The position numbers and the translations under genes were made by a program. Shown piece after piece: positions 15,492-64,000 of a DNA stretch of 64,000 bases. A model generated the notes under the pieces. It worked only from the letters and a program-made list of their open reading frames with translations. It made no database searches and was not told the origin of the DNA. Location of the stretch: positions 3,990-67,989 of the forward strand of contig CAWUKA010000001.1 of NCBI GenBank assembly GCA_963922965.1. Reading direction: 5' to 3'. How positions within the stretch are numbered: the first letter of the stretch is position 1; each line of letters opens with the position of its first letter. This DNA comes from an uncultured Gammaproteobacteria bacterium. GTDB lineage: Bacteria > Pseudomonadota > Gammaproteobacteria > CAWUKA01.

Positions 15492-15500
15492 TGGTATAAT
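15492..15500 (+). promoter_or_regulatory. Candidate extended -10 element (TGgTATAAT) of the gyrB promoter
   Basis: TGGTATAAT lies 28 nt upstream of the gyrB ATG. A CAGGAG RBS lies at 15517-15522. Confidence 0.4.
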
Positions 15501-15512
15501 GCAACGATTTAA

Positions 15513-17945
<2,433 letters not shown>

Positions 17946-34534: not shown

Positions 34535-34538
34535 GACA

Positions 34539-40251: not shown

Positions 40252-40373
40252 AGTGATTCTCCTTGTGGGTGCGCGTTATTTTTATTCTTATGCGACCCAC
40301 ATGGGCCGGTGTGGTATAGTGTATCCTTAAGATGGGTAGAATTTTAAATGAGCAGCAACAGGGTTGCAAGCGA

Positions 40374-44568: not shown

Positions 44569-44572
44569 ACTA

Positions 44573-45259: not shown

Positions 45260-45455
45260 GCATGTCCTGCGCGGGCCTTGCTTTATCAGTTTTTGAACTC
45301 ATGTAGCGCCCTGCTATACCGCGAGTCATGGTCACTAACGATGCTTGCCAGCCTTGTTTGGTTTTTAGTCTAACTGTAGCGCCGCAGCCGAGCACTTCAT
45401 CGTCTGGGTGGGCCGCTACCACCATAAGGTGTTTATTTTTCATCGTTAACTCCAA
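45165..45455 (-). pseudogene. N-terminal fragment of a PIG-L/LmbE-family N-acetylglucosaminyl deacetylase, truncated after ~96 aa
   Basis: HLMVVAAHPDDEVLGCG (the AHPDDE metal-binding motif) and LGFTHSIQFDYPDNRLD are typical of the LmbE N-terminus. The ORF stops at 96 aa, whereas the family is ~220-250 aa. The downstream sequence continues as the formyltransferase in another frame. Confidence 0.55.
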
Positions 45456-45764
45456 CGGGGTGTAAAATTTATTCTAGTTCAGTGTGTCCATGGTCACAAG
45501 TCACCTGCTGAGCATGGATTAACATGATTGATAAAACCATAGTCTTTAGCAGCGCTAACTTGATTGATCAATTCATTTTTGGCCAACACAGATTTGTGTT
45601 GATTAGCAATGTTGGTCCCGATATGCTTAAAAAAGTCAGCAGCTGAGTTGCTTATTTATTGTATTTAAACAGCACAGTAATCGAGATGTTACATTATCTA
45701 TTGTGGCCTTCAAGCAAGGTTAGCAAATCAACCCGCCTAAACTAACTGACAAAACTGGAGAGGC

Positions 45765-46973
45765 ATGACTGAATTTTTACCTTACGCAAAACAATTTATC
45801 GATGATGTTGATATTGACGCTGTAGTTGATGTATTAAAAAGTGATTGGCTCACTTGTGGTCCCACTGTCGATCGGTTCGAAACAGCGTTTGCTGAGTATG
45901 TAGGTAGTCAGCATGCAGTTGCATGTGCGAACGGTACCGCTGCACTGCACTTATTGACCTTAGCCCTTGGTATTGGTCCGGGGAATCAAGTCATTGTACC
46001 AAGTGTCACGTTTGCTGCTACTGCCAATGCTGTGCGTATGGCTGGTGCCGATGTTATTTTTGCTGATGTCGATCCTAATACTGGTCTTATCACAGCAAAT
46101 ACCCTCGCTGCTGCACTGCAGCGCTGCGAGCCTACTCGACTAGTCGCGGCTTATCCGGTTCATCTTGCTGGTCGTTATGTTGATATTGTAGTGCTGCGGG
46201 AATTGCTCGAATCATTTTGTCAACGTGATCCAGTTATCATTGAAGATAGCTGCCATGCGTTAGGGGGTTACCTTGCGGGAAGTCAACAGAAGATCGGTAG
46301 TTGCCAACACAGCACGGCAGCAACTTTTTCATTGCATCCGACAAAGATCATGACGGCAGGCGAGGGTGGCGTGATTACAATGAATGATGAGTCGTTAATG
46401 GCACAGTTAAAGCTGTTAAGAACACACGGCATTAGCCGAAATTCGCAACACTTTGTCAATTCAAGTTTTGCTGTTGCCGACAATGGCGAGCCAAACCCAT
46501 GGTATTATGAACTCCAGCAACTCGGCTTTAATTACCGGATTACCGACTTTCAGTGTGCACTGGCTGAAAGTCAACTTAAAAAGTTGGATGATTTTGTTGC
46601 CAAGCGGCAACAATTAGTGAATCACTACGACCATTGTTTACAACAAGCAGCTATTCCGCAGGTTCGGCCAATGCAGCGGGGTCAAGCGAGCAATAACAGC
46701 TGGCATTTATATGCGATCGAAATTGATTTTGCTGCAGCTGCTAAACCGCGTGCAGAAGTCATGCAGGCATTACGGCAACAAGGGATTGGCAGCCAAGTAC
46801 ATTACATTCCATTACACATACAGCCTTATTATCAGGCGCAATATGGAGAGCTTGAATTACCTGGTGCGTTTACTTATTACCAGCATACTTTATCTTTGCC
46901 ACTTTATTTTGCCATGAACAATTCGGATGTTGAGCAAGTGGTAGAAGTGCTGAGTGCTGTTTTAGCTGCTTGA
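45765..46973 (+). CDS. DegT/DnrJ/EryC1/StrS-family PLP-dependent sugar aminotransferase
   Basis: 402 aa. Its N-terminus and the conserved regions around GTAALHL and CHALGG are typical of nucleotide-sugar 4-aminotransferases of the PseC/ArnB type. The PLP lysine lies in the K-containing segment SLHPTKIMTAGEGG. Confidence 0.8.
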   Translation: MTEFLPYAKQFIDDVDIDAVVDVLKSDWLTCGPTVDRFETAFAEYVGSQHAVACANGTAALHLLTLALGIGPGNQVIVPSVTFAATANAVRMAGADVIFADVDPNTGLITANTLAAALQRCEPTRLVAAYPVHLAGRYVDIVVLRELLESFCQRDPVIIEDSCHALGGYLAGSQQKIGSCQHSTAATFSLHPTKIMTAGEGGVITMNDESLMAQLKLLRTHGISRNSQHFVNSSFAVADNGEPNPWYYELQQLGFNYRITDFQCALAESQLKKLDDFVAKRQQLVNHYDHCLQQAAIPQVRPMQRGQASNNSWHLYAIEIDFAAAAKPRAEVMQALRQQGIGSQVHYIPLHIQPYYQAQYGELELPGAFTYYQHTLSLPLYFAMNNSDVEQVVEVLSAVLAA

Positions 46974-47990
46974 TCAGATGTTGTAGACGTTTGCCTTGTA
47001 TTTCGCAAGATTAGCTGGATTCTTGAACCAATCAATCGTGATAGCCATTGCCTTGGAAAAATTGTCAAGGCCTGAGTATTGTGGTTGCCAATTTAAGCGT
47101 TGCTGCGCCAGACTATTATCAGCAACTAAACGATTCACTTCGCTTTTCTCTGGTCTAATGCGCTGCTCGTCTATGACTACATCAATGTCTTGTTGCATGA
47201 GTTCGGCAATTAAGTTGGCGGTATCACCTATTGAAATTTCGAAACCAGTACCTAGGTTCGTTGTTGTGCCAATACAACTATCGCTTGTCAGTGCGGCATA
47301 AAAACCTTCAGTGATGTCATCAACAAAGTTAAAGTCTCGTGTTGGTGTCAGCGCCCCGAGCTTGATTTGCTGATGTCCTGCTGCAATCTGACTGATAATC
47401 GTTGGAATGATGGCGCGTGCAGATTGACGTGGACCAAAAGTATTAAAGGGTCTGATCACAGCCACCGGCAGATCGTGTGAGCAGTGAAATGCAAGCGCGA
47501 GTTGGTCGGCTGCCACTTTTGATGCGGCGTAAGGGGATTGGGCTGATAGTGGGTGAGTCTCACTGATCGGTACCGTTTGCGCTGTGCCGTATACTTCACT
47601 GGTTGAGGTATGAATCACTTTTTTAAGACTAAGTTCGCGTGCAGCAGTTAACACATTAAGTGTACCGGTGACGTTGGTGTCGATATACGACTGCGCAGCG
47701 TAATAAGAGTAGGGGATAGCAACTAATGCTCCCAAATGGAGTACTGCATCACAGCCTCGCATCGCGTTATAAACAGTTTGGTAATCTCTTAAATCACCAG
47801 AAACAGTTTCGATGTTTGCTGTTTTGTGATGAGGTAATACTTCAGTGTCAAGCCAGCCGATTTGAGCAGACGAGTTGTAAAGATAAAACGCTTTGACATT
47901 GGCACCTTTTGCTAATAATTTTTCAACAAGATGAGAGCCGATAAAACCTTCTGAACCGGTTACGAGTATTGTTTTGTTATGAATTTCCAT
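46974..47990 (-). CDS. NAD-dependent nucleotide-sugar epimerase/dehydratase (extended SDR)
   Basis: 338 aa. Rossmann motif GSEGFIGSHL. Catalytic YAASK (YxxxK). Confidence 0.8.
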   Translation of the reverse strand: MEIHNKTILVTGSEGFIGSHLVEKLLAKGANVKAFYLYNSSAQIGWLDTEVLPHHKTANIETVSGDLRDYQTVYNAMRGCDAVLHLGALVAIPYSYYAAQSYIDTNVTGTLNVLTAARELSLKKVIHTSTSEVYGTAQTVPISETHPLSAQSPYAASKVAADQLALAFHCSHDLPVAVIRPFNTFGPRQSARAIIPTIISQIAAGHQQIKLGALTPTRDFNFVDDITEGFYAALTSDSCIGTTTNLGTGFEISIGDTANLIAELMQQDIDVVIDEQRIRPEKSEVNRLVADNSLAQQRLNWQPQYSGLDNFSKAMAITIDWFKNPANLAKYKANVYNI

Positions 47991-49173
47991 GATTAACCTC
48001 GGTTAGATGGGGGCTGCTTGGTAAATTTATAATTCGTTGTGCTAAATCTTCAGTGCAGGTTAGGTCCATGTGTGGACTGTGCTGATAGATGTTAAGTGTA
48101 TGCAATGGCTGCCAAGCTGGTCGTAACAAAACCTTTGCTGCGTGTGCGCGAGCAAGAATGGCTTCATGTAGATTTTGATCAGCTTGTTTTAATAAAAGTG
48201 CATTGAGCCAATAGTTACTGCGAGCAAAGTCTGCTTCTGCAAAGCAATCAACGTATGAATTGCCAGCAAATGCATTTTGATAGCGTGCCGCTAATGTTCT
48301 TTTCAACTCGACAAAATGTTGCAATGATTGTAACTGAGCAACACCGAGAGCAGCGTTGATGTTAGGTAGACGATAATTATAACCGATTTCATCATGCTGA
48401 TAGTGCCATGGGTGACTGCACTTTGCTGTGGTTGCCAAATGTTTAGCGCGCTTTGCATAGTTGGCATTGTTGGTGACCAATGCTCCGCCACCACCGGTGG
48501 TAATGATTTTATTGCCATTAAAGCTGAACATAGCGATATCAGCATGATTGCCAACGTGTTTATTTTTATAGAAAGAACCGAGTGCTTCGGCGGCGTCTTC
48601 GATCAGGTACAGCTGGTACTCATCGCATAGTGCACGACAACTATCAAGATTTGTTGGGTGGCCAAAAGTATGCATGACACATAGCGCTGAAATTTTGCGT
48701 CCAGTTTGTTCATTGAAGACTGCATTGTCTCTGCGTTGTGCGATTTGGCTAAGATAGTCGGCAAGTTTATCAGTATCAACACCTAAAGAATTTTCGTCGA
48801 TATCAACAAAGTGAGGGTATGCGTCTAGGTAACTAATGGCATTGGCAGTGGCGACAAAGGTTAAACTTGGTACTAGTACTTCATCATTGGCTTTGATATC
48901 AAGCACCCGCAACGCAAGGTGTAACGCTGTTGTCCCATTTACAGTTGCAACAGTATGTTTGATACCAGTAAGCATTGACAATTGCTGTTCGAATTCGGCG
49001 ACATATTTGCCAAGATAGGAAACATAGCCACTATCGAGTGCGCTGATGACGAATTTTTTCTCAGCTTCGCCTATGCAAGGTTCATGCAGTGGCAACGTCG
49101 TATTAGTTTGGCCGGTCACTTGCCGAATAATGCCGATAATCTGATCGGAAATAATTTTATGCTCATCGAGCAT
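47977..49173 (-). CDS. DegT-family aminotransferase (LegC/PseC-like)
   Basis: Conserved DegT regions (VATVNGTTALHLALR; FSFNGNKIITTGGGGAL). Start set at the internal Met (MLDEHKIIS). Confidence 0.8.
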   Translation of the reverse strand: MLDEHKIISDQIIGIIRQVTGQTNTTLPLHEPCIGEAEKKFVISALDSGYVSYLGKYVAEFEQQLSMLTGIKHTVATVNGTTALHLALRVLDIKANDEVLVPSLTFVATANAISYLDAYPHFVDIDENSLGVDTDKLADYLSQIAQRRDNAVFNEQTGRKISALCVMHTFGHPTNLDSCRALCDEYQLYLIEDAAEALGSFYKNKHVGNHADIAMFSFNGNKIITTGGGGALVTNNANYAKRAKHLATTAKCSHPWHYQHDEIGYNYRLPNINAALGVAQLQSLQHFVELKRTLAARYQNAFAGNSYVDCFAEADFARSNYWLNALLLKQADQNLHEAILARAHAAKVLLRPAWQPLHTLNIYQHSPHMDLTCTEDLAQRIINLPSSPHLTEVNHGNS

Positions 49174-49316
49174 GACTGAAGTCTCTTGTTCTTGTTGGTA
49201 GGCAGAATTGCGCAAGTATGGCATAATCAGTTCAGTTTTAACAACAGTATGCCTAGTCGTAAATCAGAATCGAGGGGGGGTGAAGTGGCTAGTATACTGG
49301 CTAAGGAGATAGAGTA

Positions 49317-50396
49317 TTGTCAATAAAAGACTGGGAAAAGTGTTTAGTGCCAATGTCTGCAAGTATTCGTCAAGCGATTGAAGTCATTGATCAAGCCGCG
49401 TTCCAAATCGGTTTAGTCGTTGATGAAGAGCGGGTTTTGCATGGTGTTATTACCGATGGCGATATCCGGCGCGCATTTTTACACAACCATCAGCTTGATG
49501 AGCCGATTACCACCATCACAACCAAAAAACCGTTTTCAATATCGACTGAAGACGCCGCTGCTGTGCCACAAGCTGTGATTAAGCACATGCGTTTTCATTC
49601 CTTGCACCATATTCCAATCATCGATGCACACAATCGTGTTGTTGGGCTTGAATACATTGATAACTTCATTATGCATACCAAGCGCGATAACATCGTTTTT
49701 ATTATGGCAGGTGGCTTGGGGACACGACTAAAGCCGCTAACCGATGACTTGCCAAAGCCATTGTTAACGGTTGGTGGCTATCCGATGCTCGAATTGCTGA
49801 TTCGAAATTTCGCTTCTTATGGCTTTTATCGCTTTGTGATTGCTGTTAATTATAAAGCTGATTTAATTATGCAAACGATTGGTAATGGCGAGCAGTATGG
49901 CGTTGAAGTTGATTATGTTATCGAACAGAAAAAATTAGGCACTGCTGGTGCACTGAGCTTATTAAATGAAAATCCAGCACAGCCTATGATCGTTACTAAC
50001 GCAGATATTCTGACGAATATGGATTTTGCTAAGTTGTTGCAGATGCATGAAGCAAGTTATGCCGATGTCACACTGTGCTCACGACAGTATCAGTATACAG
50101 TACCGTTTGGTGTGTTGCAGGTAGATGGTGCTGATCTAGTCCGTATTGAAGAAAAACCACAGCATACTGCTAGGGTAAATGCAGGCATTTATGTGTTTAA
50201 TCCATCGATTTTGAAACAAGTGCCGCACGCTACTAAAATTGATATGCCAATGTTACTGCAGCAATTGCTCGAAAAAAATTATCATGTTGCAACCTACAGT
50301 ATCGATGAATATTGGCTTGATGTTGGCCGTGTTGAAGAGTTAAAGCGTGCCCAACTTGATTGCGAAAAATTGTTTTGGCATGAGCTTCTAATCTAA
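49317..50396 (+). CDS. CBS-pair plus nucleotidyltransferase (PtmE-like sugar-1-phosphate guanylyl/nucleotidyl-transferase)
   Basis: 359 aa. An N-terminal tandem CBS region is followed by an NTP-transferase domain with the IMAGGLGTRLKPLTDDLPKPLL signature (G-x-G-T-R motif). Confidence 0.75.
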   Translation: MSIKDWEKCLVPMSASIRQAIEVIDQAAFQIGLVVDEERVLHGVITDGDIRRAFLHNHQLDEPITTITTKKPFSISTEDAAAVPQAVIKHMRFHSLHHIPIIDAHNRVVGLEYIDNFIMHTKRDNIVFIMAGGLGTRLKPLTDDLPKPLLTVGGYPMLELLIRNFASYGFYRFVIAVNYKADLIMQTIGNGEQYGVEVDYVIEQKKLGTAGALSLLNENPAQPMIVTNADILTNMDFAKLLQMHEASYADVTLCSRQYQYTVPFGVLQVDGADLVRIEEKPQHTARVNAGIYVFNPSILKQVPHATKIDMPMLLQQLLEKNYHVATYSIDEYWLDVGRVEELKRAQLDCEKLFWHELLI

Positions 50397-50404
50397 CCTC
50401 ACCA

Positions 50405-51172
50405 TTAGATACGCATATTAAAACCTTTCTCAGCGAGAAAATGTTTAGCTCCCAATGGAGTTTGTTCAGTAAATTGAAATATGGCACTAGCACAAACGGC
50501 ATCGATGTGTGGTAGTGTTAACGCATCAAGCATGTGTTGATAATTGCCTGCACCACTGCAGGCAATGATCGGGATTGATACCTCAGCAATCTGCTGGAGT
50601 AAGTCAAGATCATAGCCAGTCATTTTGCCGTCATTATCGATTGATGAGATGATAATTTCGCCGGCGCCTGCACGCTCGAGCTGTTTAATCCAATCACTTA
50701 CTATCAGCTTAGTATCAACTGTGCCGGCATGGCTATAACAGTGATAGTGATCACCGTGCCGTTTTGCGTCAATGCCAGCGACGATACATTGACTACCAAA
50801 CTGGTTGGCAGCTTGTTGAATCAAGTCAATATTGTTATAACAAGCACTGTTGATTACAACTTTGTCGGCACCAGCTTGGAGAAAGTTAGCGATATCCTCA
50901 ACTGAATCAATGCCACCGCCGACAGTGAATGGTACAAAGCACGCTGAAGCAAATTGTTGAATCAGAGTGTAATCAGCCTTACGTTGATTGTTCGTTGCTG
51001 CAATATCGTAAAGCACCAATTCATCGACCTCACGAGCATTAAATACTTTGATAGCTGTCAGTACGCTGCTGACCGTGCGCCAATTATCAAAGCCACTACC
51101 CTTGACCAGATCAACGCCATTCCAAAGTAAGCTTGGTATGATACGGGTTTTAAGCATCAGAGCGCTCGACAA
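50405..51172 (-). CDS. Imidazole glycerol phosphate synthase cyclase-subunit paralogue (HisF-like, WbuZ-type)
   Basis: 255 aa (beta/alpha)8 HisF-like protein. Located inside a glycan cluster next to HisH- and WbpG-like genes rather than in a his operon. Confidence 0.8.
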   Translation of the reverse strand: MSSALMLKTRIIPSLLWNGVDLVKGSGFDNWRTVSSVLTAIKVFNAREVDELVLYDIAATNNQRKADYTLIQQFASACFVPFTVGGGIDSVEDIANFLQAGADKVVINSACYNNIDLIQQAANQFGSQCIVAGIDAKRHGDHYHCYSHAGTVDTKLIVSDWIKQLERAGAGEIIISSIDNDGKMTGYDLDLLQQIAEVSIPIIACSGAGNYQHMLDALTLPHIDAVCASAIFQFTEQTPLGAKHFLAEKGFNMRI

Positions 51173-51785
51173 AGTTCTTTAATAGCTGTAAGCCTGAGGT
51201 TGAGCTTTTTTCTGGATGAAATTGAACACCATAGATATTTTCTCGCTTAATGGCTGTAACCAGCGTGTCGCAGTATGGTGTCGTACCAATCACATGCTGT
51301 TGTTGTTCAGCAATAAAATGATAGCTATGCACAAAGTAAAAATCAGCTTGTGACCGGATATTGGAAAACAATTTCTCGCTATTGTCAAAGCTCAGGTTGT
51401 TCCATCCAACATGTGGTACTTTTTCCTGGTTGGTGGCAACAATTTTTTTCACCTTGCCAGGAATTAATCCGAGTCCAGCAGTTTGTTCTGGTTCGCTGCC
51501 CAAGCTTGCTAAGAGTTGCATGCCAAGACAAATGCCGAGTAACGGAAAGCCTGATTCAACGTGGTCGAGTAGCGCATCCTGCCAACCGGATTGTTGCATG
51601 ATCTGCATGGCTTGCTGAAAAGCGCCAACACCCGGTAGGATAAGATGACTCGCATCATCTACTTGTTCAGGATTATCCATAATCATTGGATTAAATTGTA
51701 GCGTTTTAAGTGCATTATAAACTGAGGTGATATTGCTAATACCTAGATTGATAATGCCGATCTGTTGATTATTCATCATTATCAT
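51150..51785 (-). CDS. Glutamine amidotransferase class I, HisH-like (WbuY-type)
   Basis: 211 aa. Catalytic Cys in GICLGMQLL. C-terminal HPEKS. Confidence 0.82.
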   Translation of the reverse strand: MIMMNNQQIGIINLGISNITSVYNALKTLQFNPMIMDNPEQVDDASHLILPGVGAFQQAMQIMQQSGWQDALLDHVESGFPLLGICLGMQLLASLGSEPEQTAGLGLIPGKVKKIVATNQEKVPHVGWNNLSFDNSEKLFSNIRSQADFYFVHSYHFIAEQQQHVIGTTPYCDTLVTAIKRENIYGVQFHPEKSSTSGLQLLKNFVERSDA

Positions 51786-52923
51786 ATTTGAGTTTGGTTA
51801 GGCTGCCGTTGCTATCTTTAATCAACTCGCCTTTTTTATTGGTTCGAAATAATTTTCTATTGGTAAAGTTATCGCATATCTCAATGAATTGATCGATGCT
51901 TAAATCAAGTGGCGCAATGATGTCTACAAGTGATTTTCCTAAATGCTGCCACGGAAATTCACCATCATGTTTGCGCGCTAACACCATGCCCTGTTGCCTG
52001 GTTAGTCGGCTTCGTCGGATGTGTAAGCAAGCTAAATCTGTGGTGCGAGAAAATCCATATTTAAGAAATTTGAAGTAATCATGAATACCATTTTGGTGAT
52101 TATCTAGATTTTCATAATTGACGATAGAACCTTCAACTACTGTTGAATAGGTGTTAAATCCATGTGCTTGTGCGACTAGGGCGTTATGGTAGCCATCCCA
52201 AGGAAAAAAATGACCGAGGAATAAGCTAGTAATGCCAACCCGTACTAATGTTTCATCATCAGGGTAGGTATAAAGATCAAGATCGCGTTCAGTAATCCCA
52301 CTTTTACCAATGACATCAGTAACACGCATACCATTTAAACCACCAAACTCTTCTAGCCAACGTCGATTCAGCATTTGACTATTGCTTGCTACATCTGGAC
52401 CACCGTATTCGTTTTGTGAATTTTCACCCCAGAGAATAACTGGGATGTTAAACTGGACAGCAATGCGAATTGGAATGGTGAACATCGCAAGATGCTCAGG
52501 CCAAGAAATATCACCAACCTGCTCAAGACCAATGCGGTTCAATTTACGCCGTATCACTGGATCCGGTGCAACTTCAATCAAGTCGATGCCATTTTGTCTG
52601 AGTGCGTCGATATTTTTTCGGCCAAGTTCGGTTAAATCACATGTTCTCGAGGTGACAACTAATGGTCGTAGGCCAAGCTCAAGTGCTTTTAAGGTTTGAT
52701 AGGTACTATCTTTGCCACCGCTAGACGGAATAACACAGTCCCAGGCACTGTTGCTTCGCTTGCAGGTTTGCTCGAGAATAGTCATTAATTCGACTTCGCG
52801 TTGCTGCCAATCAACTTGCTGGCGCTTTTCTATATAGCGGCAAGCACTGCATATGCCTTCTTCATCAAATTGTAAATCTGGCTTAGTATCAGGCATGATG
52901 CAATTTTTGCAATAGCGTTGCAT
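51769..52923 (-). CDS. N-acetyl sugar amidotransferase (WbpG/PseA-like, PP-loop ATP pyrophosphatase family)
   Basis: 384 aa. N-terminal Cys cluster (CKNCIMPDTKP...CSAC). PP-loop SSGGKDST. Confidence 0.8.
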   Translation of the reverse strand: MQRYCKNCIMPDTKPDLQFDEEGICSACRYIEKRQQVDWQQREVELMTILEQTCKRSNSAWDCVIPSSGGKDSTYQTLKALELGLRPLVVTSRTCDLTELGRKNIDALRQNGIDLIEVAPDPVIRRKLNRIGLEQVGDISWPEHLAMFTIPIRIAVQFNIPVILWGENSQNEYGGPDVASNSQMLNRRWLEEFGGLNGMRVTDVIGKSGITERDLDLYTYPDDETLVRVGITSLFLGHFFPWDGYHNALVAQAHGFNTYSTVVEGSIVNYENLDNHQNGIHDYFKFLKYGFSRTTDLACLHIRRSRLTRQQGMVLARKHDGEFPWQHLGKSLVDIIAPLDLSIDQFIEICDNFTNRKLFRTNKKGELIKDSNGSLTKLKYDNDE

Positions 52924-52934
52924 ATTAACTCCTT

Positions 52935-53546
52935 TTACTTGCGCTTGAGTAGAAACCAGGTTTGGTTATCCCAACTCGGCTCAGCACGTTTCCATAAGAA
53001 GCCATAGTCAACCAACTCTAAATCATTTGGGTATCGATCAAGTACTTCACCAGCAAAGTCGCGTTTAAATAGTCGTTCTTGTTCGCCACGATAGCTCACT
53101 GTAGTTGGTGTTGGATTAAAATATTCACTGATCAAAATATATTTATTTGATAAATTAAATAACTTATCGTAAGTATAACTCAGTTCATTTGGGTTTAAAT
53201 GGATGAGAACACCACAAGTCATCACAAGCTCAAAACATTGGTCGCTATCAAATTCATGAATCGAGCAATTTACCGCAGTCACATAGCTGCACTCTTGCAG
53301 TTTTTCGTAAGCTGTTTTATTGATTTCAATTCCAGTGAGCTTGCTGTTCGAATTTAAGGAATGTAATGCTGCTAGATTATGCCCAGCATTAGGTCCTATT
53401 TCACAGGCTGAGTCTAATTCTCCGGTGAGTATCACTAGTTTTTTAAAAAATTTTATACGACTTGCGACATCAATGTTATTCCGTTCGATGTATTCATCAC
53501 CAAATTCACCATGCCAAAATTGTTCTTGCTCATTCATTTGCCTCAT
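52935..53546 (-). CDS. Class I SAM-dependent methyltransferase (pseudaminic-acid-biosynthesis-associated methylase-like)
   Basis: 203 aa. N-terminus FWHGEFGDEYIERNN and glycine-rich EIGPNAGHNL resemble the small methylases found in Pse/Leg clusters. Sits next to the amidotransferase trio. Confidence 0.65.
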   Translation of the reverse strand: MRQMNEQEQFWHGEFGDEYIERNNIDVASRIKFFKKLVILTGELDSACEIGPNAGHNLAALHSLNSNSKLTGIEINKTAYEKLQECSYVTAVNCSIHEFDSDQCFELVMTCGVLIHLNPNELSYTYDKLFNLSNKYILISEYFNPTPTTVSYRGEQERLFKRDFAGEVLDRYPNDLELVDYGFLWKRAEPSWDNQTWFLLKRK

Positions 53547-53548
53547 CC

Positions 53549-54283
53549 TTAATCCTTTCGATTTTGCTCAAATATTTCATTCTTTTTCAACCAACTTGGA
53601 TGTTGTGACAGTAGGTTGGTGATATCTTCTAGTGTGTAATCTGGCTTGCTCGGATACAGTGACTCGATAATAAGTTTAATTAACTCTAGATCATCTGGGT
53701 AATCCAGAGTGACGCGGATATAGCTAGTATCATCTTTATTCATGAGGTTAGCTATTTTAAATAAATGTGGATTTTGTCTCAGATAAAAGGTCACGTGTTC
53801 ACGCTCTTCAGCAGACTGCGCTCTGTGATAGAGTTTGGCTAAGCATGTTAGGCTGAAAATTTCTACATCCATGCCGCGTGGGTAACTACGGGCAAGTAAG
53901 TTGCTGGCGTAATCAAGCGTTGCTTCATTGTTGGCAAATAAATCGATGACCTTGTCAATGATATTAGGATCAATGAGTGGGCAGTCAGAGGTGACACGTA
54001 TGATCGCCTCTGCTGAAAATGCTTTGGCAGCATGGTAATAGCGAGATAGAACATTGCTATCTGAGCCTCGGAAACATTCCACGCCGTAGTCATTGCATAT
54101 ATCAATAATAATATCATCAATGGTTTTGGTACTGGTTGCGATCACAATGCAATCCGCGTGCTTGACCCGTTTTAGTTGCTCAATGTGGTAACCAATGATT
54201 GATTTCTCGCGTATTTCTTTGAGAATTTTTCCTGGCAAACGTTCTGATGAGACATGTGCTTGCGAGATGATGACTTTACGCAT
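53549..54283 (-). CDS. Cytidylyltransferase, CTP_transf_3 family (SpsF/PseF-like)
   Basis: 244 aa. N-terminal VIISQAHVSSERLPGKILKEI matches the SpsF/PseF pattern (QAR-x-S-x-RLPGK). Confidence 0.75.
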   Translation of the reverse strand: MRKVIISQAHVSSERLPGKILKEIREKSIIGYHIEQLKRVKHADCIVIATSTKTIDDIIIDICNDYGVECFRGSDSNVLSRYYHAAKAFSAEAIIRVTSDCPLIDPNIIDKVIDLFANNEATLDYASNLLARSYPRGMDVEIFSLTCLAKLYHRAQSAEEREHVTFYLRQNPHLFKIANLMNKDDTSYIRVTLDYPDDLELIKLIIESLYPSKPDYTLEDITNLLSQHPSWLKKNEIFEQNRKD

Positions 54284-54408
54284 ACATTACACCCAATCAA
54301 TACAGCTGGTGGTTAGCTGGTTGGCTCTAACCTTAAGTATAGAAAAAGTTATGCATTCGGGATGATCAATCTGGTGCAATAATGCCATTTGACCCGTTTA
54401 TATCGGTA

Positions 54409-55434
54409 CTAAAGTGCTTCAGAGTTGCGTAGCAATTGCTGAATTTGTTCTCTATCCAGCCATTCGTTATTTGAATCGCTGCTGTAGGTGAATCGATCGG
54501 GAACTGGTGTGACTTGTTGCTCAGTATAGGGTTCATCATCCCAATATTTGAACTGTGGTGTGATCATATAACTGTCTGTTAGTTCTAAAGTATTACGTGC
54601 ATCATCGGCGGTTACCATCACTTCATGCAATTTCTCGCCAGGGCGAATGCCAACAACTTCATGTGGTAACTCAGGCGCGATTGCTTTAGCGAGATCAACA
54701 ATGTTGACGCTTGGCAGTTTAGGTACAAAAATTTCACCACCTTTCATGCGGTTAAAGCAAGAGAGGACAAAATTAACCCCTGAGCCAAGCGCAATCACAA
54801 AACGTGTCATCTCTGGATCTGTGATGGTGAGATGAGTTGAGCCTTCAGCAACACATTGGCGAAAAAAGGGTACAACGCTGCCACGAGAACCGATGACATT
54901 GCCATAACGGACAACAGCAAAACGGGTTCGCCTGTGGCTGCTGAGACTATTAGCGGCGACAAAGATTTTATCCGATGCTAATTTTGACGCCCCGTATAAG
55001 TTAATTGGGTTAGCTGCTTTGTCAGTAGACAAAGCAATGACTCTATCGATATTATTGTTGATTGCGGCACGAACAACATTTTCCGCACCGTGGATATTGG
55101 TTTGGATGCACTCAAAGGGGTTATATTCAGCGGTTGGTACTTGTTTTAAGGCGGCGGCATGGACAACGAAGTCAACATCTTGCATTGCCATTTCTAACCG
55201 CGCGTAATCGCGCACGTCACCAATGAAAAAGCGGAGTACTTTTTGGTCAATCTGGCCTAACTGTTTTGCCATTTCATATTGTTTTAGCTCATCGCGTGAG
55301 AAAACAATTAGACGTTTTGGTGCGTAGCGGTCGAGTACCGATTTAATGAAGTGCTTACCGAATGAACCACTCCCACCGGTAATGAGGATCGATTTGCCAT
55401 TAAGGTCGATAGGGTTGGAATACTTTGTAATCAT
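54409..55434 (-). CDS. Nucleotide-GlcNAc 4,6-dehydratase (PseB/LegB/FlaA1 family, Polysacc_synt_2)
   Basis: 341 aa. ILITGGSGSFGKHF Rossmann motif. Catalytic YGASK. Whether it is of the inverting (PseB) or retaining (LegB) type cannot be told from sequence alone. Confidence 0.82.
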   Translation of the reverse strand: MITKYSNPIDLNGKSILITGGSGSFGKHFIKSVLDRYAPKRLIVFSRDELKQYEMAKQLGQIDQKVLRFFIGDVRDYARLEMAMQDVDFVVHAAALKQVPTAEYNPFECIQTNIHGAENVVRAAINNNIDRVIALSTDKAANPINLYGASKLASDKIFVAANSLSSHRRTRFAVVRYGNVIGSRGSVVPFFRQCVAEGSTHLTITDPEMTRFVIALGSGVNFVLSCFNRMKGGEIFVPKLPSVNIVDLAKAIAPELPHEVVGIRPGEKLHEVMVTADDARNTLELTDSYMITPQFKYWDDEPYTEQQVTPVPDRFTYSSDSNNEWLDREQIQQLLRNSEAL

Positions 55435-57326: not shown

Positions 57327-59177
57327 TTACACTGTATCTATTGGTTCGAAAGCGTTGATCTGATTGCCGAATAAAGCTCTGAATTGATTGTTGGTTTGAT
57401 AAAGTTCATTGAAACTACCTTGCGCAAGACATTGACCAGCGTCAATAACCACTAACTTGTCACATAAGCGAATTGATGAGGCGCGGTGGGCGATGATGAT
57501 CAGTGTTTTGATCTTGCTAAGTTGTTGCAATGCGGCGTTAAAATCATTTTCAGTGATTGAGTCGAGCGCGTTGGTTGCTTCATCCATAATGAGAATATCT
57601 GGATCGCGATACAGTGCGCGTGCAATACCAACGCGCTGACATTGGCCGCCTGATAGGCGCATCCCATGCTCACCGACTCGTGTGTTTAACCCATCAGGTA
57701 GTTCGCTGATAAATTGATTCAGTTGTGCTGCTGCAATTGCAGCATTGAGTTTGTCAAGATCAATATTATTTTGTTCGATACCAAAAGCTATATTTGTCAT
57801 TAAGGTATCATCAAGTAAGAAAATCTTTTGCGGCACATAACCGATCAGCGACGATAGTGCGGATGTGTCCTGACTAATGTCATCATCATCAAGTATGATT
57901 TTACCTTGTTTAATCGTCAGTAAGCCAAGAATCACATTAACCAGCGTACTTTTACCAGCACCAGATAAACCAACAATGCCAAGCGAAGAGTTTTTTTCAA
58001 TCGTGAGTGAAATATCGTTTAGTGCATTCAGCCTGCTATTAGGGTATTGGTAACTCACATTTTGCAACGTTAACCGATGCTTGAAGTGAATCGATGAGTA
58101 GTGAAAATTAGCACTAAGTATTTGTTTGCTTGGTGTTGATTTGATGATGTCATGAATAATAAATACTGAAGCATGATAGCGGCGCAGTAAACCGATCGCG
58201 TTATAAATCCGAACTGATACTGGTAGTAAGCGCTGCACCGATAATGCCATCACGCTTAAAATAGGTAGTATGCTAATCAAGTTTCCGTGTGTAGCGAGAA
58301 GGTAGAGCATGATTAACACCAAGACCGCAAATGCAATGGTGTTAAGTGCGATACCTGGGGTAGCAGAAATGGTTTCAAACAGGATATTCTTTTGGTTCAA
58401 TGCCCGAACCGGCGTCATGAAACGTTCGATAAAAAAACTTTCACTGTGATGACTATTAATTTCTTTTTTGCCTTGGAGGCTTTCGGTTGCGTACTGGTGG
58501 ATATGCCTACTGAGCAGTTCGTTTTCTCTGCTGATCCGTGTGATGGCATGCTTACTATAACGGCTTATTAACGTCATGCACGCTGCAATAACCACTGTCA
58601 CTGAGATCACTAACCCAGGATCGATGCTAATCATGAGCGTCGTTAATGTTATCAAGATAAGGCCATCCGTGAGTATGGTTAAAGTTTGTTTCAATACGGA
58701 GGCAGTATAGTTGGTATCAACTAACAAATGCTTTGCATAAGTAGATGAGTTCAGATCAGTCGTTTGTTCGTAAGGTGTGTACAGAAAACACTGCAGACAG
58801 CGATGAGATAAACTGCGCGAAAAGCTGGTCGTAAATTTGCTTTGTATAATAATGTTGGTAAGCGATAGCACGCCTTTAACCAGGATCACACCAATAATAC
58901 AAAGCCCCAAAAAGATCATGAACCGATGATCAGATGAAAAATGCAATAATAAATAAATCCGCTGCAATGTTGCATTGCTATGAATCAATCCCGGCTGCGA
59001 TAAAATCTTCACATAGGGAAAAATGGCCCCGACACCAACTAGCTCAATGGCTGATAACGCTAACATGGCGAGTATCAATTGTGCGGACTGATACTTTTGT
59101 TGTTTAAGTAATAATGACCAAATCGCGCTAATGATTGACTTTGATTTAGGCTGGCTCATGCTGATTGTGTTTCTCAT
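57327..59177 (-). CDS. ABC exporter with fused transmembrane and ATP-binding domains (MsbA/type I exporter-like)
   Basis: 616 aa. An N-terminal 6-TM domain followed by an NBD with Walker A GLSGAGKST, signature LSGGQCQRVGIARAL and Walker B ILIMDEATNALD. Confidence 0.85.
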   Translation of the reverse strand: MRNTISMSQPKSKSIISAIWSLLLKQQKYQSAQLILAMLALSAIELVGVGAIFPYVKILSQPGLIHSNATLQRIYLLLHFSSDHRFMIFLGLCIIGVILVKGVLSLTNIIIQSKFTTSFSRSLSHRCLQCFLYTPYEQTTDLNSSTYAKHLLVDTNYTASVLKQTLTILTDGLILITLTTLMISIDPGLVISVTVVIAACMTLISRYSKHAITRISRENELLSRHIHQYATESLQGKKEINSHHSESFFIERFMTPVRALNQKNILFETISATPGIALNTIAFAVLVLIMLYLLATHGNLISILPILSVMALSVQRLLPVSVRIYNAIGLLRRYHASVFIIHDIIKSTPSKQILSANFHYSSIHFKHRLTLQNVSYQYPNSRLNALNDISLTIEKNSSLGIVGLSGAGKSTLVNVILGLLTIKQGKIILDDDDISQDTSALSSLIGYVPQKIFLLDDTLMTNIAFGIEQNNIDLDKLNAAIAAAQLNQFISELPDGLNTRVGEHGMRLSGGQCQRVGIARALYRDPDILIMDEATNALDSITENDFNAALQQLSKIKTLIIIAHRASSIRLCDKLVVIDAGQCLAQGSFNELYQTNNQFRALFGNQINAFEPIDTV

Positions 59178-59479: not shown

Positions 59480-60499
59480 ATGGCTGTCAGTCAGCAGCAG
59501 AAACCACTACTCATTGCTGAGGTTGGGCAAGCGCATGATGGCTCTTTGGGTATAGCCCACGCCTACATTGATGCAGCTGTCGATGCCGGTGCTGATGTGG
59601 TGAAATTCCAAATGCATATCGCGAGTGAGGAATCCACCCTTGATGAGCGGTTCCGGGTGAACTTCAGCTATCAAGATGCAACCCGTTTTGACTACTGGCG
59701 CCGTATGGAGTTTACTGAGGCCGAGTGGCTTACATTAAAGACCCACGCTGAACAGCGTGGGTTGCAATTTTTATGTTCGGTGTTTTCGGTGGCGGCAGTG
59801 CAGCGGTTGCAACGCTTGCAAGTAACGGCTTACAAGGTTGGCTCCGGTGAAATACAATCGACTGATTTACTTGCTGCATTACTTGAGACGGGTAAACCCT
59901 TACTCATCAGTACTGGCATGTCAAATTATACTGAGATCGATGATCTGGTTAAGCAACTTGAGTTAGTAAAGGCCGATTATTTGTTGATGCAATGTACGTC
60001 TGCCTATCCGGTGCCGCTTACAGAGGTAGGTATGAATGTGATTACTGAATTTAAACAACGTTATCCGTGTCAGATTGGTTTTTCTGATCACTCTGGCTCG
60101 ATCTACCCGAGCTTGTTTGCAATGACACAAGGTGTTGCGGCAGTTGAAGTGCATGTTGTGTTTGATAAGGCGATGTTTGGTCCTGATGTTAAAGCATCAC
60201 TGACGTTTGCGGAGTTGAAAACATTAGCAGAGGCGCGAGATGCGTTTCACACCATGCAAACCAGTCCAGTTGATAAAGATAACATGGCAAGTAGCCTAGC
60301 ATCGATGCGCTCACTGTTTAATAAAAGTGTTGCACTCAGTGTAGACTTGCCTGCTGGCACCTTGCTAGATGCGAATATGTTGACACTAAAGAAGCCCGGT
60401 ACTGGTATTCCACCTGGGCATATGAGCGATATATTTGGTAGGCGCTTGAAGCATGCTGTTACTGCTGATCGTCTACTCAAAATTGAGGATTTAGAATAA
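59480..60499 (+). CDS. neuB: N-acetylneuraminate/legionaminate synthase family (NeuB/LegI/PseI)
   Basis: 339 aa. LLIAEVGQAHDGSLGIAHAYIDAAVDAGADVVKFQ TIM-barrel motif. C-terminal SAF domain. Confidence 0.88.
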   Translation: MAVSQQQKPLLIAEVGQAHDGSLGIAHAYIDAAVDAGADVVKFQMHIASEESTLDERFRVNFSYQDATRFDYWRRMEFTEAEWLTLKTHAEQRGLQFLCSVFSVAAVQRLQRLQVTAYKVGSGEIQSTDLLAALLETGKPLLISTGMSNYTEIDDLVKQLELVKADYLLMQCTSAYPVPLTEVGMNVITEFKQRYPCQIGFSDHSGSIYPSLFAMTQGVAAVEVHVVFDKAMFGPDVKASLTFAELKTLAEARDAFHTMQTSPVDKDNMASSLASMRSLFNKSVALSVDLPAGTLLDANMLTLKKPGTGIPPGHMSDIFGRRLKHAVTADRLLKIEDLE

Positions 60500-60501
60500 C
60501 T

Positions 60502-61647
60502 ATGCGAACGATTTGTGTTGTCGTCAATAGCCGTGCTAATTACGGCCGGATAAAATCAGTATTGCAAGCCATTCAAGCGCACCCTGATTTGAATTTGAAG
60601 TTGGTAGTTGGCGCATCGGCACTATTATACCGCTATGGTGCAGTGCATGAGGTGATCGAGAAAGATGGCTTTGCGATCGATGCTACCATCTACTCGATAT
60701 TAGAAGGCGAAAAGCCAACAACGATGGCTAAATCGACCGGAATGGGCATCATTGAAATATCATCAGTATTCGAGCAATTGCAGCCTGACATCGTTATCAC
60801 CGTCGCTGATCGGTTTGATACCTTGGCGACTGCAGTAGCGGCGAGCTACATGAATATTCCACTAGCACATACGCAAGGTGGTGAGGTTACTGGCTCGATT
60901 GATGAGAGCGTCCGTCATGCGATTAGTAAGCTCGCGCATATTCATTTTCCAGCAACTAAGCAAGCCGCCGAATACTTAGTCCGGATGGGTGAAGATCCGG
61001 AAACGGTACATTGGGTAGGCTGCCCAGCTATCGATGCTATTGCTAAGATTGATTTATCTTTGCCAACTAATTTTTTTAACCAGGCAGCTGGTGTTGGTGC
61101 TACACTTGATAGTGATCAGCCTTATCTCGTTGTATTGCAACATCCAGTCACGACTGAGTTTGGTCAAGGCTATCAACAAATCAAACAAACACTAGCTGCA
61201 ATTGCTGAGATTAAGATGCAAACGGTCTGGCTCTGGCCCAATGTTGATGCAGGCTCGGATGATGTATCAAAAGGATTGCGCGACTTTCGTGAAAAATATA
61301 AGCCTGATTATTTACATTTTTATCGTAATTTTCCTGTTGAGGATTATGCCCGTCTGATTAACAATTGTAGTTGTCTAATTGGTAATTCAAGTTCTGGCTT
61401 ACGTGAAGGCAGTTATCTTGGTATCCCGGTTGTTAATATTGGTACGCGCCAAGCAGGGCGTGAACATGCTAGTAACATTATGTTTGCTGATTATGTAGCT
61501 ACTGACATTCAAGCAAAGATTATGCAGCAGTTGGCACATGGGCGTTACCCCTCAGCAAACTTATTTGGTGATGGTCATGCTGCAGAGAAAATTGCCGATA
61601 TTTTAGCGAAGACACCGATCAAGATTCAAAAGAGACTACATTACTGA
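60502..61647 (+). CDS. neuC: UDP/GDP-N-acetylglucosamine 2-epimerase (hydrolysing), NeuC/LegG family
   Basis: 381 aa. N-terminus MRTICVVVNSRANYGRIKSVL is typical of hydrolysing NeuC-type 2-epimerases. Confidence 0.85.
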   Translation: MRTICVVVNSRANYGRIKSVLQAIQAHPDLNLKLVVGASALLYRYGAVHEVIEKDGFAIDATIYSILEGEKPTTMAKSTGMGIIEISSVFEQLQPDIVITVADRFDTLATAVAASYMNIPLAHTQGGEVTGSIDESVRHAISKLAHIHFPATKQAAEYLVRMGEDPETVHWVGCPAIDAIAKIDLSLPTNFFNQAAGVGATLDSDQPYLVVLQHPVTTEFGQGYQQIKQTLAAIAEIKMQTVWLWPNVDAGSDDVSKGLRDFREKYKPDYLHFYRNFPVEDYARLINNCSCLIGNSSSGLREGSYLGIPVVNIGTRQAGREHASNIMFADYVATDIQAKIMQQLAHGRYPSANLFGDGHAAEKIADILAKTPIKIQKRLHY

Positions 61648-62375
61648 TGGCTATTCGGGGTTTATCCGTTTTAGCTTTGGTGCCAGCACGTGGTGGAAGC
61701 AAAAGTATCAGCAAAAAAAATCTGTGCTTGGTAGGTGGCTTATCACTGGTTGCGCGAGTTGCGGCAGTTGTTAGCAGTATCGACTGGATCGATTTTGCTT
61801 TACTCAGCACTGATGACAAAGACATAGCGGCTGAAGGTATGCAACATGGTTTGTCAGTACCGTTTCTAAGGCCTGATAAACTTGCTCGAGATGATACTAC
61901 GGCGCTAGCAACTTGGCAGCATGACTGGCTGGCAGTAGAACGTCATTGCCAACAGCAATTCGACATTGCAATTTGGTTGCAGCCAACCAGCCCAACTCGA
62001 ATTGTTGCTGATGTTGAGATGACAGTGAATGCGCTGTTAACCAATAACTGTTTTGCAGCAGCTACCGTGAGTCGATTGCCGGGCCATTACCATCCGGAAA
62101 AAATTTTACAGATCGACGCTAATAATTATCTCGAATATTATGTCGGCGGTCAGCAAGGGAAAAGTTTGCGTCAGCAGTTAACACCTTATTATTACCGCAA
62201 TGGTCTTTGTTATGCCGCTAAACGCCAATGCATTTTGGAGTTGAACAGTATAATCGAATATCAATGTTACCCTGTTGTGATTGACAGGCCAGTTGTTAAT
62301 ATTGACGAGCCCTATGAATTAGCATTAGCCAATTGGATGACAGAAGAAGATGACAAGATCAAAGCAGCTACGTGA
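61647..62375 (+). CDS. neuA: Acylneuraminate cytidylyltransferase family (NeuA/LegF)
   Basis: 242 aa. [18 protein letters not shown], the CMP-NeuAc synthetase N-terminal motif. Confidence 0.85.
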
Positions 62376-63972
62376 TTTAATTGACTCGAACCAGCTTGAG
62401 TTTATTTTGGAAGCCCATAATGGCCTGAGTGCAAAAATTGTTGCAGAAGCTGGTTTTAAAGGCATTTGGGCCAGTGGGTTGACCATCTCAGCGCAGTTTG
62501 GTGTACGCGACAATAATGAGGCAAGTTGGACCCAGGTGCTCGAAAATGTTGAATTTATGGCTGATGCTGTTGAGTTACCAATTTTGTTAGATGGCGATAC
62601 CGGTTATGGCAATTTTAACAATATGCGTCGCTTGGTGAATAAGTTAGAGCAGCGCCAGGTTGCTGGTGTTTGTATTGAAGATAAATTATTTCCAAAAACC
62701 AATAGTTTTATCAAAGGTGATGCCCAGCCACTTGCTGATATTGACGAGTTTTGCGGCAAAATAAAAGCCGGTAAAGATGCGCAACTCGATGATGACTTTG
62801 TGATTGTCGCCCGGATTGAAGCATTTATTGCTGGCTGGGGTATTGCTGAGGCGATTAAGCGCGCTGAGGCTTATCATGCTGCTGGCGCTGATGCGATTTT
62901 AATTCATAGTGCACTTGCTGTAGCTGATGAGATTCTCGCGTTTAAGAAGGAATGGGCTAGCCATTTGCCGGTGCTCATTGTGCCAACAAAATATTATGCT
63001 ACGAGTACCGAAATTTTTCGTGAGTACGGTTTTTCGTTGGTGATTTGGGCAAATCACCTTTTGCGTTCAGCAATTAATGCGATGCAGGGTACTGCGAATA
63101 GAATATATCACGATCAAAATCTACTCGCGGTTGAGGATCAGGTTGTATCTGTTGCTGAAGTATTTCGTTTGCAAGGCGCTGACGAATTAAAGCAAGCTGA
63201 ATCATTGTATTTGCCAAAACATTATGATAGCCAATATCGTGCATTGGTGTTAGCTGCTTCACGTGGTAAAGAGATGGGCGAGTTAACCCTCGATAAGCCG
63301 AAAACAATGCTACGCATTGGCGGTAAACCTCTGTTGGCACGTATTATCGATAGTTATCGAGCGGCTGGCATCAAGCAAATTGGTGTTGTTCGCGGTTATA
63401 AAAAAGATCAGGTGAACTTGGTCGATATTGTTGCAATCGACAATGATGAGTATGATTCAACCGGTGAACTTACCTCATTAGAGAAAGGTTTAATTCATTA
63501 TAAAGACAGTGCCAGTATGCCAATGATTGTTTCATATGGTGATGTTTTATTTAGAAAATATATCGTTGAGTTACTCAAAGAATCGAAAGCAGACTTTGCA
63601 ATTGCAGTTGATGTCAATTGGCATGAGAGTCGGAATAAGAATCGTGATGCAGATTATATTACCGCTGATGTGGCTTATTCACGCTACAGTCAAGCTGATA
63701 GTATTAGCTTGCAATATATTGCAAGTGATGTTGACGAAGTGGCTATTCATGGTGAGTGGATTGGAATGCTCAAACTATCAAGTGTTGGTGTATCTGCGCT
63801 AGAAACTATTTTAGCTGAGCTGCGTCAGCAAGCAAATTACAATAATTTGCAAATGCCTGATTTGCTGAACGCCCTAGTACAACGCAATCATCAAGTTGCG
63901 GTTATTTATACGACAGGGAATTGGCTCGATATCGATAGCGTTGAAGACGCAGTATATGCGGGAGAGTTTTAA
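62350..63972 (+). CDS. Phosphoenolpyruvate phosphomutase fused to a C-terminal nucleotidyltransferase domain (Ppm-PntC-like)
   Basis: 540 aa. N-terminal ~290 aa: ICL/PEPM fold with the PEP mutase-specific motif [10 protein letters not shown] (EDKxxxxxNS) and the LDGDTGYG metal site. C-terminal ~250 aa: nucleotidyltransferase-like ([25 protein letters not shown]). Confidence 0.8.
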
Positions 63973-64000
63973 TGGTTAATGCGACACAGTTTATTGAGCT

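Follow-up and report, generated by a model that had tools for sequence, protein, structure and literature searches.

The stretch of DNA analysed here, which we call the window, comprises 64,000 nucleotides of contig CAWUKA010000001.1 (positions 3,990 to 67,989, forward strand) from an uncultured gammaproteobacterium (GenBank assembly GCA_963922965.1). Near its right-hand end, directly behind three genes for the synthesis and activation of a nonulosonic acid (NulO), lies an open reading frame (ORF) on the plus strand (62350..63972) whose 540-residue product fuses a phosphoenolpyruvate (PEP) mutase, Ppm, to a nucleotidyltransferase. The PEP mutase domain (62368..63105, residues 7–252; Pfam PEP_mutase, E 3.5e-61) is predicted to convert PEP to phosphonopyruvate and contains, at 62677..62706 (residues 110–119), a regular-expression match to the Ppm-specific motif EDKxxxxxNS, which has been defined as the discriminator of Ppm enzymes (PMC6697681). 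The C-terminal domain (63241..63969) belongs to PF12804 (MobA/LicC-like), with a Pfam NTP_transf_3 match over residues 298–420 (E 1.7e-12) and an atypical LAASRG signature. A chance match of the motif is excluded for this ORF, since the ORF is full-length and scores strongly in addition to carrying the motif. An initial annotation of the window had placed a motif-bearing ORF at 62350 and a nucleotidyltransferase domain at its C-terminus, and both assignments hold.

We assign the N-terminal domain to the PEP mutases, with its catalysis taken as a prediction. The domain scores 385.8 bits against the NCBIfam PEP mutase equivalog TIGR02320 (cut-off 319.55), and the ORF falls short of the cut-offs of the sister families phosphonopyruvate hydrolase (232 of 374 bits), methylisocitrate lyase (prpB; 148 of 354 bits) and CPEP mutase (103 of 420 bits). 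The closest solved structure is the PEP mutase of the mussel Mytilus edulis (1M1B; E 2.3e-124), with which the Ppm domain aligns without gaps at 66% identity over 289 residues. Nine residues that we take to form the active site of the Mytilus enzyme (D58, D85, D87, E114, K120, N122, S123, R159 and H190) are all identical in the window Ppm. The rival identity, a different enzyme from the isocitrate lyase superfamily (methylisocitrate lyase, oxaloacetate hydrolase or phosphonopyruvate hydrolase, for example), could appeal to the PF13714 fold common to these enzymes and to the significant though weaker matches that the ORF gives to them. It is effectively refuted by the PEP mutase model alone exceeding its cut-off, by the presence of the motif, by the identity to the mussel enzyme with every checked residue kept, and by the genes for phosphonopyruvate decarboxylase (Ppd) and 2-aminoethylphosphonate (AEP) aminotransferase directly downstream. 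Profile comparison, which the initial annotation had named as the way to separate these families, places the domain with PEP mutase and not with methylisocitrate lyase or oxaloacetate hydrolase.

The three NulO genes upstream lie on the same strand as the fusion and are co-linear with it, as had been noted before. The first gene of the operon (59480..60499) encodes a NeuB-family nonulosonic acid synthase (Pfam NeuB, E 2.1e-60, plus SAF). It is followed by a NeuC-type hydrolysing UDP-GlcNAc 2-epimerase (60502..61647; TIGR03568, 391.3 bits, cut-off 235.9) and by a NeuA-like CMP-nonulosonate synthetase (61647..62375; Pfam CTP_transf_3, E 7.4e-9), which matches the PseF model below its cut-off (87.9 bits) and whose gene overlaps the start of ppm by 26 nucleotides. 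To follow the operon past the window end we used locus L001 (ENA ERZ23491892, scaffold_59), which encodes the exact same fusion protein and is 100% identical to the window across 11,651 shared bases. The next gene, of which the window holds the 5' end (63972..64000, plus strand; full gene L001:11623-12780), encodes a 385-residue Ppd that exceeds the cut-off of TIGR03297 (395.9 against 312.5 bits). Its product begins MVNATQF, as first read, and probable phosphonopyruvate decarboxylase was the function then suggested for it; its ATG lies at 63972 rather than at 63973, within a TAATG overlap with the ppm stop codon. After ppd comes an AEP aminotransferase of the biosynthetic PhnW-AepZ type (TIGR03301, 372.8 bits, cut-off 360.8), which stays below the cut-off of the catabolic PhnW model TIGR02326 (273 against 400.8 bits), and no PhnX-like phosphonatase gene was seen in the locus. 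Both enzymes that had been expected downstream, the decarboxylase and the transaminase, are thus present on L001 above their cut-offs.

The aminotransferase gene is followed on L001 by a stand-alone nucleotidyltransferase, PntC (L001:13834-14607, 257 residues), and then by p444, a protein of 444 residues without annotation. Beyond it lie p540m (540 residues, opposite strand), p489 (489 residues) and p357 (357 residues). Gene order on the one strand is neuB, neuC, neuA, ppm-nucleotidyltransferase, ppd, aminotransferase, pntC and p444, with successive gaps of 2, -1, -26, -1, -4, -17 and 6 nucleotides. Since these eight genes overlap or abut, we read them as a single, translationally coupled operon; a scan for promoters and terminators gave counts at or near chance and was not used. 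Judged from these matches, a predicted AEP pathway is established at the locus. The fusion was originally placed at the end of its cluster, but it lies in the middle of a glycan island, about 9 kb more of which follows. Divergent from the operon, on the minus strand at 57327..59177, is a fused exporter of the ATP-binding cassette (ABC) superfamily in which transmembrane and nucleotide-binding domains are joined (Pfam ABC_membrane and ABC_tran). In NCBIfam it comes closest to PglK (306 bits) and MsbA (279 bits), without reaching either cut-off, and it probably exports or flips the glycan.

The operon encodes two nucleotidyltransferases, and the residues that hold the substrate point to the stand-alone enzyme as the source of CMP-AEP. 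Treponema denticola Tde1415 is one of two enzymes shown to make CMP-AEP (PMC6697681), and in its crystal structure (6PD1) Glu104 and Glu196, which are aspartates in LicC, contact the AEP amine. The stand-alone enzyme matches 6PD1 over its full length (residues 6–252, E 2.8e-32); its E110 and E204 align with Glu104 and Glu196, and Asp106 is also kept. The Ppm-fused domain has no match to 6PD1 at E ≤ 0.001 and resembles the stand-alone enzyme over its first 88 residues only (about 33% identity). At the signature it reads LAASRG in place of the canonical LAAGLGTR, a departure from the GxGxR pattern, and at the positions of Glu104 and Glu196 all 26 family members compared have Tyr and Leu/Phe/Ile, respectively, with the Asp106 equivalent kept. 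By these residues the fused domain is not a canonical AEP-specific PntC. Because the full-length match and both AEP-binding glutamates are found in the stand-alone enzyme and are absent from the fused domain, it is likely the stand-alone PntC that makes CMP-AEP. The initial annotation had given CMP activation to the fused cytidylyltransferase, a role that instead fits the separate downstream gene. The characterised PntCs, one stand-alone and one fused to an aminotransferase, include none fused to Ppm. The fused domain is nevertheless under selection and probably functional, given that its LAAsRG, YGD, GEW.G and GhWlD motifs are conserved in 121 relatives. As it has no AEP-binding residues and always occurs here alongside a second cytidylyltransferase, it probably has a role other than CMP-AEP synthesis.

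The bait sequences for gathering related clusters were p444 and p540m. Members of the p444 family are scarce: of 1.84 billion protein representatives scanned exhaustively with its profile, 74 match at E ≤ 1e-30, and a word-indexed search yields 21 proteins. All nine p444 loci inspected, the window included, carry NulO genes; the eight others encode NeuB, a NeuC-type epimerase, a CTP_transf_3 protein, a PtmE-like CBS-nucleotidyltransferase and a LegH-like acetyltransferase. Together with two loci found through p540m homologues they form a cluster family of 11 loci, four of which contain AEP genes: the window (42% G+C), L166 (51%), L173 (43%) and, in divergent form, L162 (36%). In L166 and L173 the module consists of a PF01467 cytidylyltransferase, an AEP aminotransferase-like protein, Ppd, an ABC exporter homologous to that of the window, the Ppm-nucleotidyltransferase fusion and p444. 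L162 encodes a divergent Ppm-like protein, a fusion of PF01467 to an AEP aminotransferase-like domain and a Ppd-like protein, directly followed by NeuC, NeuA and NeuB. The window Ppm is 51–53% identical to those of L166 and L173, its Ppd just 31% identical to theirs, and its aminotransferase gives no BLAST match to their aminotransferase-like proteins at E ≤ 1e-3. The activating enzyme also differs in fold, PF12804 in the window against PF01467 in the other three. Given the low Ppd identity, the non-homologous activating enzymes and the aminotransferase non-match, the most likely account is that NulO clusters of one kind acquired AEP synthesis independently of one another, and this putative recurrence is the strongest available evidence for a functional link between phosphonate and NulO glycan. 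All four AEP-bearing loci encode a WbuX-type N-acetyl-sugar amidotransferase, and its HisH and HisF partners occur in three of the four. The amidotransferase is missing from the six loci without visible ppm that were compared, a small sample with truncated contigs.

The fusion protein and the four-gene AEP core are, on their own, ordinary and already known biology. Among 1,485 non-redundant Ppm proteins 59.5% are fused to another domain, 33% to PF12804 (Rice et al. 2019, PMC6697681), and large cluster families with Ppm, Ppd, AEP aminotransferase and two PntCs, one of them fused, have been described (Li & Horsman 2022, PMC8942020). Our searches returned full-length relatives of the fusion in 564 genome and 452 metagenome stretches, the best of them 63% identical and drawn from Chromatiaceae, Nitrospirales, Burkholderiaceae, cyanobacteria and others. 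We surveyed the neighbourhoods of the 160 loci with the closest Ppm-nucleotidyltransferase relatives in the genome and metagenome collections, searching 10 kb either way by tblastn. Ppd was found in 133, the aminotransferase in 81 and a second nucleotidyltransferase outside the fusion in at least 84. What is new is the recurrent pairing of NulO genes with AEP genes, each of them individually known. In the closest Ppm relatives, from Chromatiaceae metagenome-assembled genomes (L002-L005:~14600-16300, 62–63% identity), PntC is followed by a 557-residue membrane protein of the Sulfatase/EptA-LtaS superfamily, which is a plausible AEP transferase in those loci.

Of the four proteins p444, p540m, p489 and p357, at least two have the GT-B glycosyltransferase fold, p540m in a model of lower quality (pLDDT 76). 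At the start of the C-terminal Rossmann domain both p444 (H302-P303) and p540m (H421-P422) carry the invariant His-Pro motif described for bacterial sialyltransferases and for the pseudaminic (Pse) and legionaminic (Leg) acid transferases of Tannerella forsythia. Both also match Pfam Glyphos_transf below threshold (E 0.13 for p444, E 0.0013 for p540m), and distant homologues of p444 pass that threshold and resemble Capsule_synth and polysialyltransferase as well. Known enzymes resembling these proteins use donors that release CMP, a description that both CMP-NulO and CMP-AEP fit. p489 weakly matches the NCBIfam BFO_1060 family, which was built on the T. forsythia Pse/Leg transferases. Among PDB sequences the profile of p444 had no match, and the p540m profile and p489 gave chance-level matches (E 0.15–0.5); profile-profile comparison of p444, p489 and p540m showed no relationship, and Foldseek returned only generic GT-B matches for both models. 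In the window, L166 and L173 the gene next after the phosphonate set is p444, and p540m occurs in all four AEP-bearing loci. We infer that the TagF-like p444 and p540m are the best candidates for AEP transfer. The island ORFs scanned with Pfam or NCBIfam and the Pfam table of L001 contain no LicD homologue, so that head-group transfer would have to use another enzyme family; nor did the scanned island ORFs include a CDP-alcohol phosphatidyltransferase. p357 was set aside as a candidate, as its larger, glycosyltransferase-like family exceeds 259 proteins, some of them PF13524 (Glyco_trans_1_2) and one on a SAR324 contig without visible ppm. A sulfatase-family (EptA/LtaS-like) transferase, found in six of the 160 closest loci, is absent from the island ORFs scanned.

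The glycan island spans about 32 kb (40332 to L001:20357), with a G+C content like that of the remaining window. Its neighbours are fba (39184-40251) and, past the window end, pyk-pgk-gap-tkt (L172:17029-21335), all minus-strand genes of a glycolytic set that the island splits in two. The upstream part (40332..55434) encodes two GT4 glycosyltransferases, two formyltransferases, PseC, LegB, LegC, a PtmE-like CBS-nucleotidyltransferase, a WbuX/HisH/WbuZ acetamidino trio (50405-52923), a Pse-associated methylase, a second cytidylyltransferase and PseB. At 45765-55434 it holds enzymes for the early steps of two routes, the pseudaminic (PseB, PseC) and the legionaminic (LegB, LegC, PtmE-like). The island has a single NeuB and a single NeuC, and its scans recognised no PseG and no PseH- or LegH-type gene; either several routes share one synthase, or the 6-deoxy-amino sugars are used without further conversion. 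NeuB lies below both equivalog cut-offs (TIGR03569 NeuB, 259 of 400 bits; TIGR03586 PseI, 187 of 340 bits), and among solved structures it is nearer to the Neisseria meningitidis N-acetylneuraminic acid (Neu5Ac) synthase than to pseudaminic acid synthase (163 against 117 bits). NeuC is likewise nearer to the epimerase domain of human GNE than to the legionaminic-pathway epimerase 5XVS (256 against 197 bits). It is 49–50% identical to the second NeuC of L162 and the NeuC of L164, and 29–31% identical to NeuC genes embedded in Leg-type gene sets. From this identity pattern the neuBCA trio is more likely of Neu5Ac type, and its three genes would suffice as a route starting from UDP-GlcNAc. A truncated AAA_14/DUF4143 ATPase (55979-56881, minus strand) separates the Pse/Leg block from that of exporter, neuBCA and ppm; it has lost its N-terminus, retains only the last third of AAA_14 and is adjoined by a 72-residue ORF. 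This remnant may mark the seam of a composite island.

These genes suggest the following route. NeuC, NeuB and NeuA would turn UDP-GlcNAc and PEP into a CMP-activated sialic-acid-type sugar and, in parallel, Ppm would convert PEP to phosphonopyruvate. Ppd, the usual partner of Ppm in this respect, would decarboxylate phosphonopyruvate to phosphonoacetaldehyde, pulling the unfavourable equilibrium forward, after which the aminotransferase would form AEP and the stand-alone PntC would form CMP-AEP. The two CMP-linked donors would then be used by p444, p540m, p489 and p357 to build a NulO glycan with AEP, and the PglK/MsbA-like ABC transporter next door would export the finished product. We think it probable that the operon holds a complete AEP pathway of this kind, to which Ppm would commit PEP, and gives rise to an AEP-decorated NulO surface glycan. 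A phosphonate-decorated NulO glycan is well supported by the gene content, and the placement of AEP on the NulO residue itself, rather than on another sugar of the same glycan, would be a further and unproven step. The earlier proposal of a phosphonate-substituted NulO glycan accordingly stands in its broader part, through the recurrence of AEP genes in at least three other NulO clusters of differing G+C; the attachment to the NulO residue is not shown by sequence.

Several observations weigh against the reading of an AEP-decorated NulO glycan. All evidence for it comes from sequence, and the organism is an uncultured metagenome bin. The sample gathered by bait is small and biased, and in seven of the 11 related NulO clusters no ppm lies in the visible 10–16 kb, most of these contigs ending within a few kb of the bait. 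In L162 the Ppm-like protein (15571-16797, 408 residues) reads ESKRFPKVNS at the site of the EDKxxxxxNS motif and reaches 86 bits on the Ppm model, which is below the cut-off; it may belong to a divergent branch of Ppm that surveys by motif would overlook. Homologues of NeuB, NeuC, NeuA, p444, p540m, p489 and p357 were found within 10 kb in none of the 160 closest Ppm loci, which means that the link belongs to the cluster family and not to the enzyme, and that Ppm lineage does not explain it. No transferase of the island can be assigned to AEP, and p444 occurs also in clusters without visible ppm. Finally, the GT4 enzymes and Pse/Leg-type genes of the island make other sugars possible acceptors.

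This last point is the basis of the principal alternative, in which AEP is placed on a sugar other than NulO, or on a further acceptor in the same envelope, of which a hexosamine transferred by a GT4 enzyme would be one example, and in which adjacency to neuBCA merely keeps the genes of one glycan together. In the bacterial phosphonoglycans described so far, AEP is linked to hexoses or hexosamines, which counts for this alternative, as do the two GT4 glycosyltransferases and the Pse/Leg-type amino-sugar genes of the island. An open-access literature search found nothing that links AEP or other phosphonates to Pse, Leg or Neu residues, which is weak negative evidence in the same direction. The phosphonate genes, however, are translationally coupled to neuBCA and the GT4 genes lie about 20 kb off; in L162, too, phosphonate genes of another origin adjoin orthologous NeuC-NeuA-NeuB, and the NulO-associated p444 and p540m are common to all AEP-bearing loci. 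We regard this alternative as possible but on balance doubtful.

It is improbable that AEP is bound for a phosphonolipid or a free small-molecule phosphonate instead of a glycan. Large families with Ppm-PntC, Ppd, AEP aminotransferase and PntC, for example in Burkholderiales, are associated with phospholipid genes (PMC8942020), and several of the closest Ppm relatives come from Burkholderiaceae; the island, in contrast, is without CDP-alcohol phosphatidyltransferase, acyltransferase, nonribosomal peptide synthetase, ATP-grasp or other natural-product tailoring genes, and the operon has glycan genes on both sides and a glycan-type ABC exporter. Still less credence attaches to the idea that the divergent NeuB condenses PEP with phosphonoacetaldehyde, or another phosphonate aldehyde, to a new ulosonic acid with a carbon-phosphorus bond that NeuA would activate. 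NeuB does score below the NeuB and PseI cut-offs, neuB and ppd share an operon, and enzymes of the NeuB type condense PEP with aldehydes, of which Ppd would supply one. We consider this very unlikely in view of the canonical, above-cut-off NeuC, which would supply a ManNAc-type aldose, of the canonical aminotransferase and AEP-type PntC, which would consume the aldehyde and activate AEP directly, and of NeuB orthologues with 53% identity in L164, a locus without visible ppm.

The wider genome context was also examined. The window contains dnaA (10730-12082), dnaN (12105-13211) and gyrB (15528-17945), and the GC skew changes sign from minus to plus at about 10 kb; these mark the replication origin region and put the glycan island about 30 kb from oriC. 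Directly upstream of fba, at 34503-39181, lie genes for an ABC ATPase, a TolC-like outer-membrane protein and a MacB-type ATPase/permease pair. No tRNA gene was found in the window. Eukaryote-like and low-complexity proteins are encoded at several places, namely an OTU-like cysteine protease (25424-26809), an RCC1-repeat protein (26834-28978, minus strand), a Pro/Ser-rich 110-residue ORF (55549-55881) and, just past the island, a 302-residue protein with an acidic Ser/Glu tail (L001:20619-21527). They suggest an intracellular, Legionellales-like gammaproteobacterium.

Combining these threads gives a more far-reaching picture, which we offer as tentative and, taken as a whole, rather unlikely. 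Recurrent, independently assembled NulO clusters would put AEP on a sialic-acid-like residue, and the transfer from CMP-AEP would be carried out by a previously unrecognised TagF-like GT-B phosphonyl-transferase (p444 or p540m), not one of LicD type. The Ppm-fused nucleotidyltransferase domain would act on a second substrate, and the cluster would yield a zwitterionic surface glycan of a new kind, in a bacterium that looks intracellular and of Legionellales type. If the host is intracellular and Legionellales-like, a hydrolysis-resistant, zwitterionic mimic of sialic acid could matter in host interaction. In phosphonate cell-surface biology the least charted part is what follows CMP-AEP formation, few transferases or acceptors being known. 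The window and its three relatives supply a pair of CMP-activated donors and as many as four transferase candidates, in a setting where no LicD could obscure the outcome. The locus is a usable lead to the missing phosphonyl-transferase family and may point to a new NulO modification. It also sharpens the question of what is done by the nucleotidyltransferase domain that is fused to about a third of Ppm proteins and that lacks the AEP-binding residues of characterised PntC.

The locus can be compared with several known systems. Like the window protein, Fom1 of fosfomycin biosynthesis is a bifunctional Ppm and nucleotidyltransferase, the latter acting later in the same pathway (PMC6697681); in Fom1 the nucleotidyltransferase domain is N-terminal, of PF01467 and acts on hydroxyethylphosphonate on the way to a small-molecule antibiotic, whereas in the window it is C-terminal, of PF12804 and part of a glycan cluster. 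Within the characterised set Tde1415/Ari1348 (PDB 6PD1/6PD2), Tde1415 is fused to an aminotransferase, unlike the stand-alone nucleotidyltransferase of the window. The NulO clusters with CMP-NulO transferases (T. forsythia Tanf_01245/TFUB4_00887) have NeuB/NeuC/NeuA, Pse/Leg genes, the acetamidino trio and GT-B proteins with the His-Pro motif in common with the island, but p444, p540m and p489 belong to distinct, unannotated families that show no detectable similarity to one another. The polylegionaminic acid O-antigen of Legionella pneumophila is made by a comparable NulO glycan cluster. We know of no report of phosphonate in the NulO glycans of T. forsythia or L. pneumophila. The teichoic acid polymerases TagF/TarL, which are CDP-alditol phosphotransferases, resemble p444 and p540m below threshold, and the donor of the latter two could equally be CMP-NulO. 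Phosphocholine decoration by LicC and LicD follows the same logic as that proposed here, a zwitterionic head group being activated with CMP or CDP and then placed on a glycan; PntC is a homologue of LicC, and it is the LicD part of that system that has no counterpart in the island. The Ppm-PF12804 fusions of phosphonyl-tailoring (Pnt) clusters have the same domain order, the same EDK motif and the same core of Ppm-nucleotidyltransferase, Ppd, AEP aminotransferase and second PntC. At the present locus the core is followed by a rare GT-B protein rather than by an enzyme of LicD-like, sulfatase-family or lipid type, and the window core, unlike the fusions of this kind among the 160 closest loci, shares its operon with neuB-neuC-neuA.

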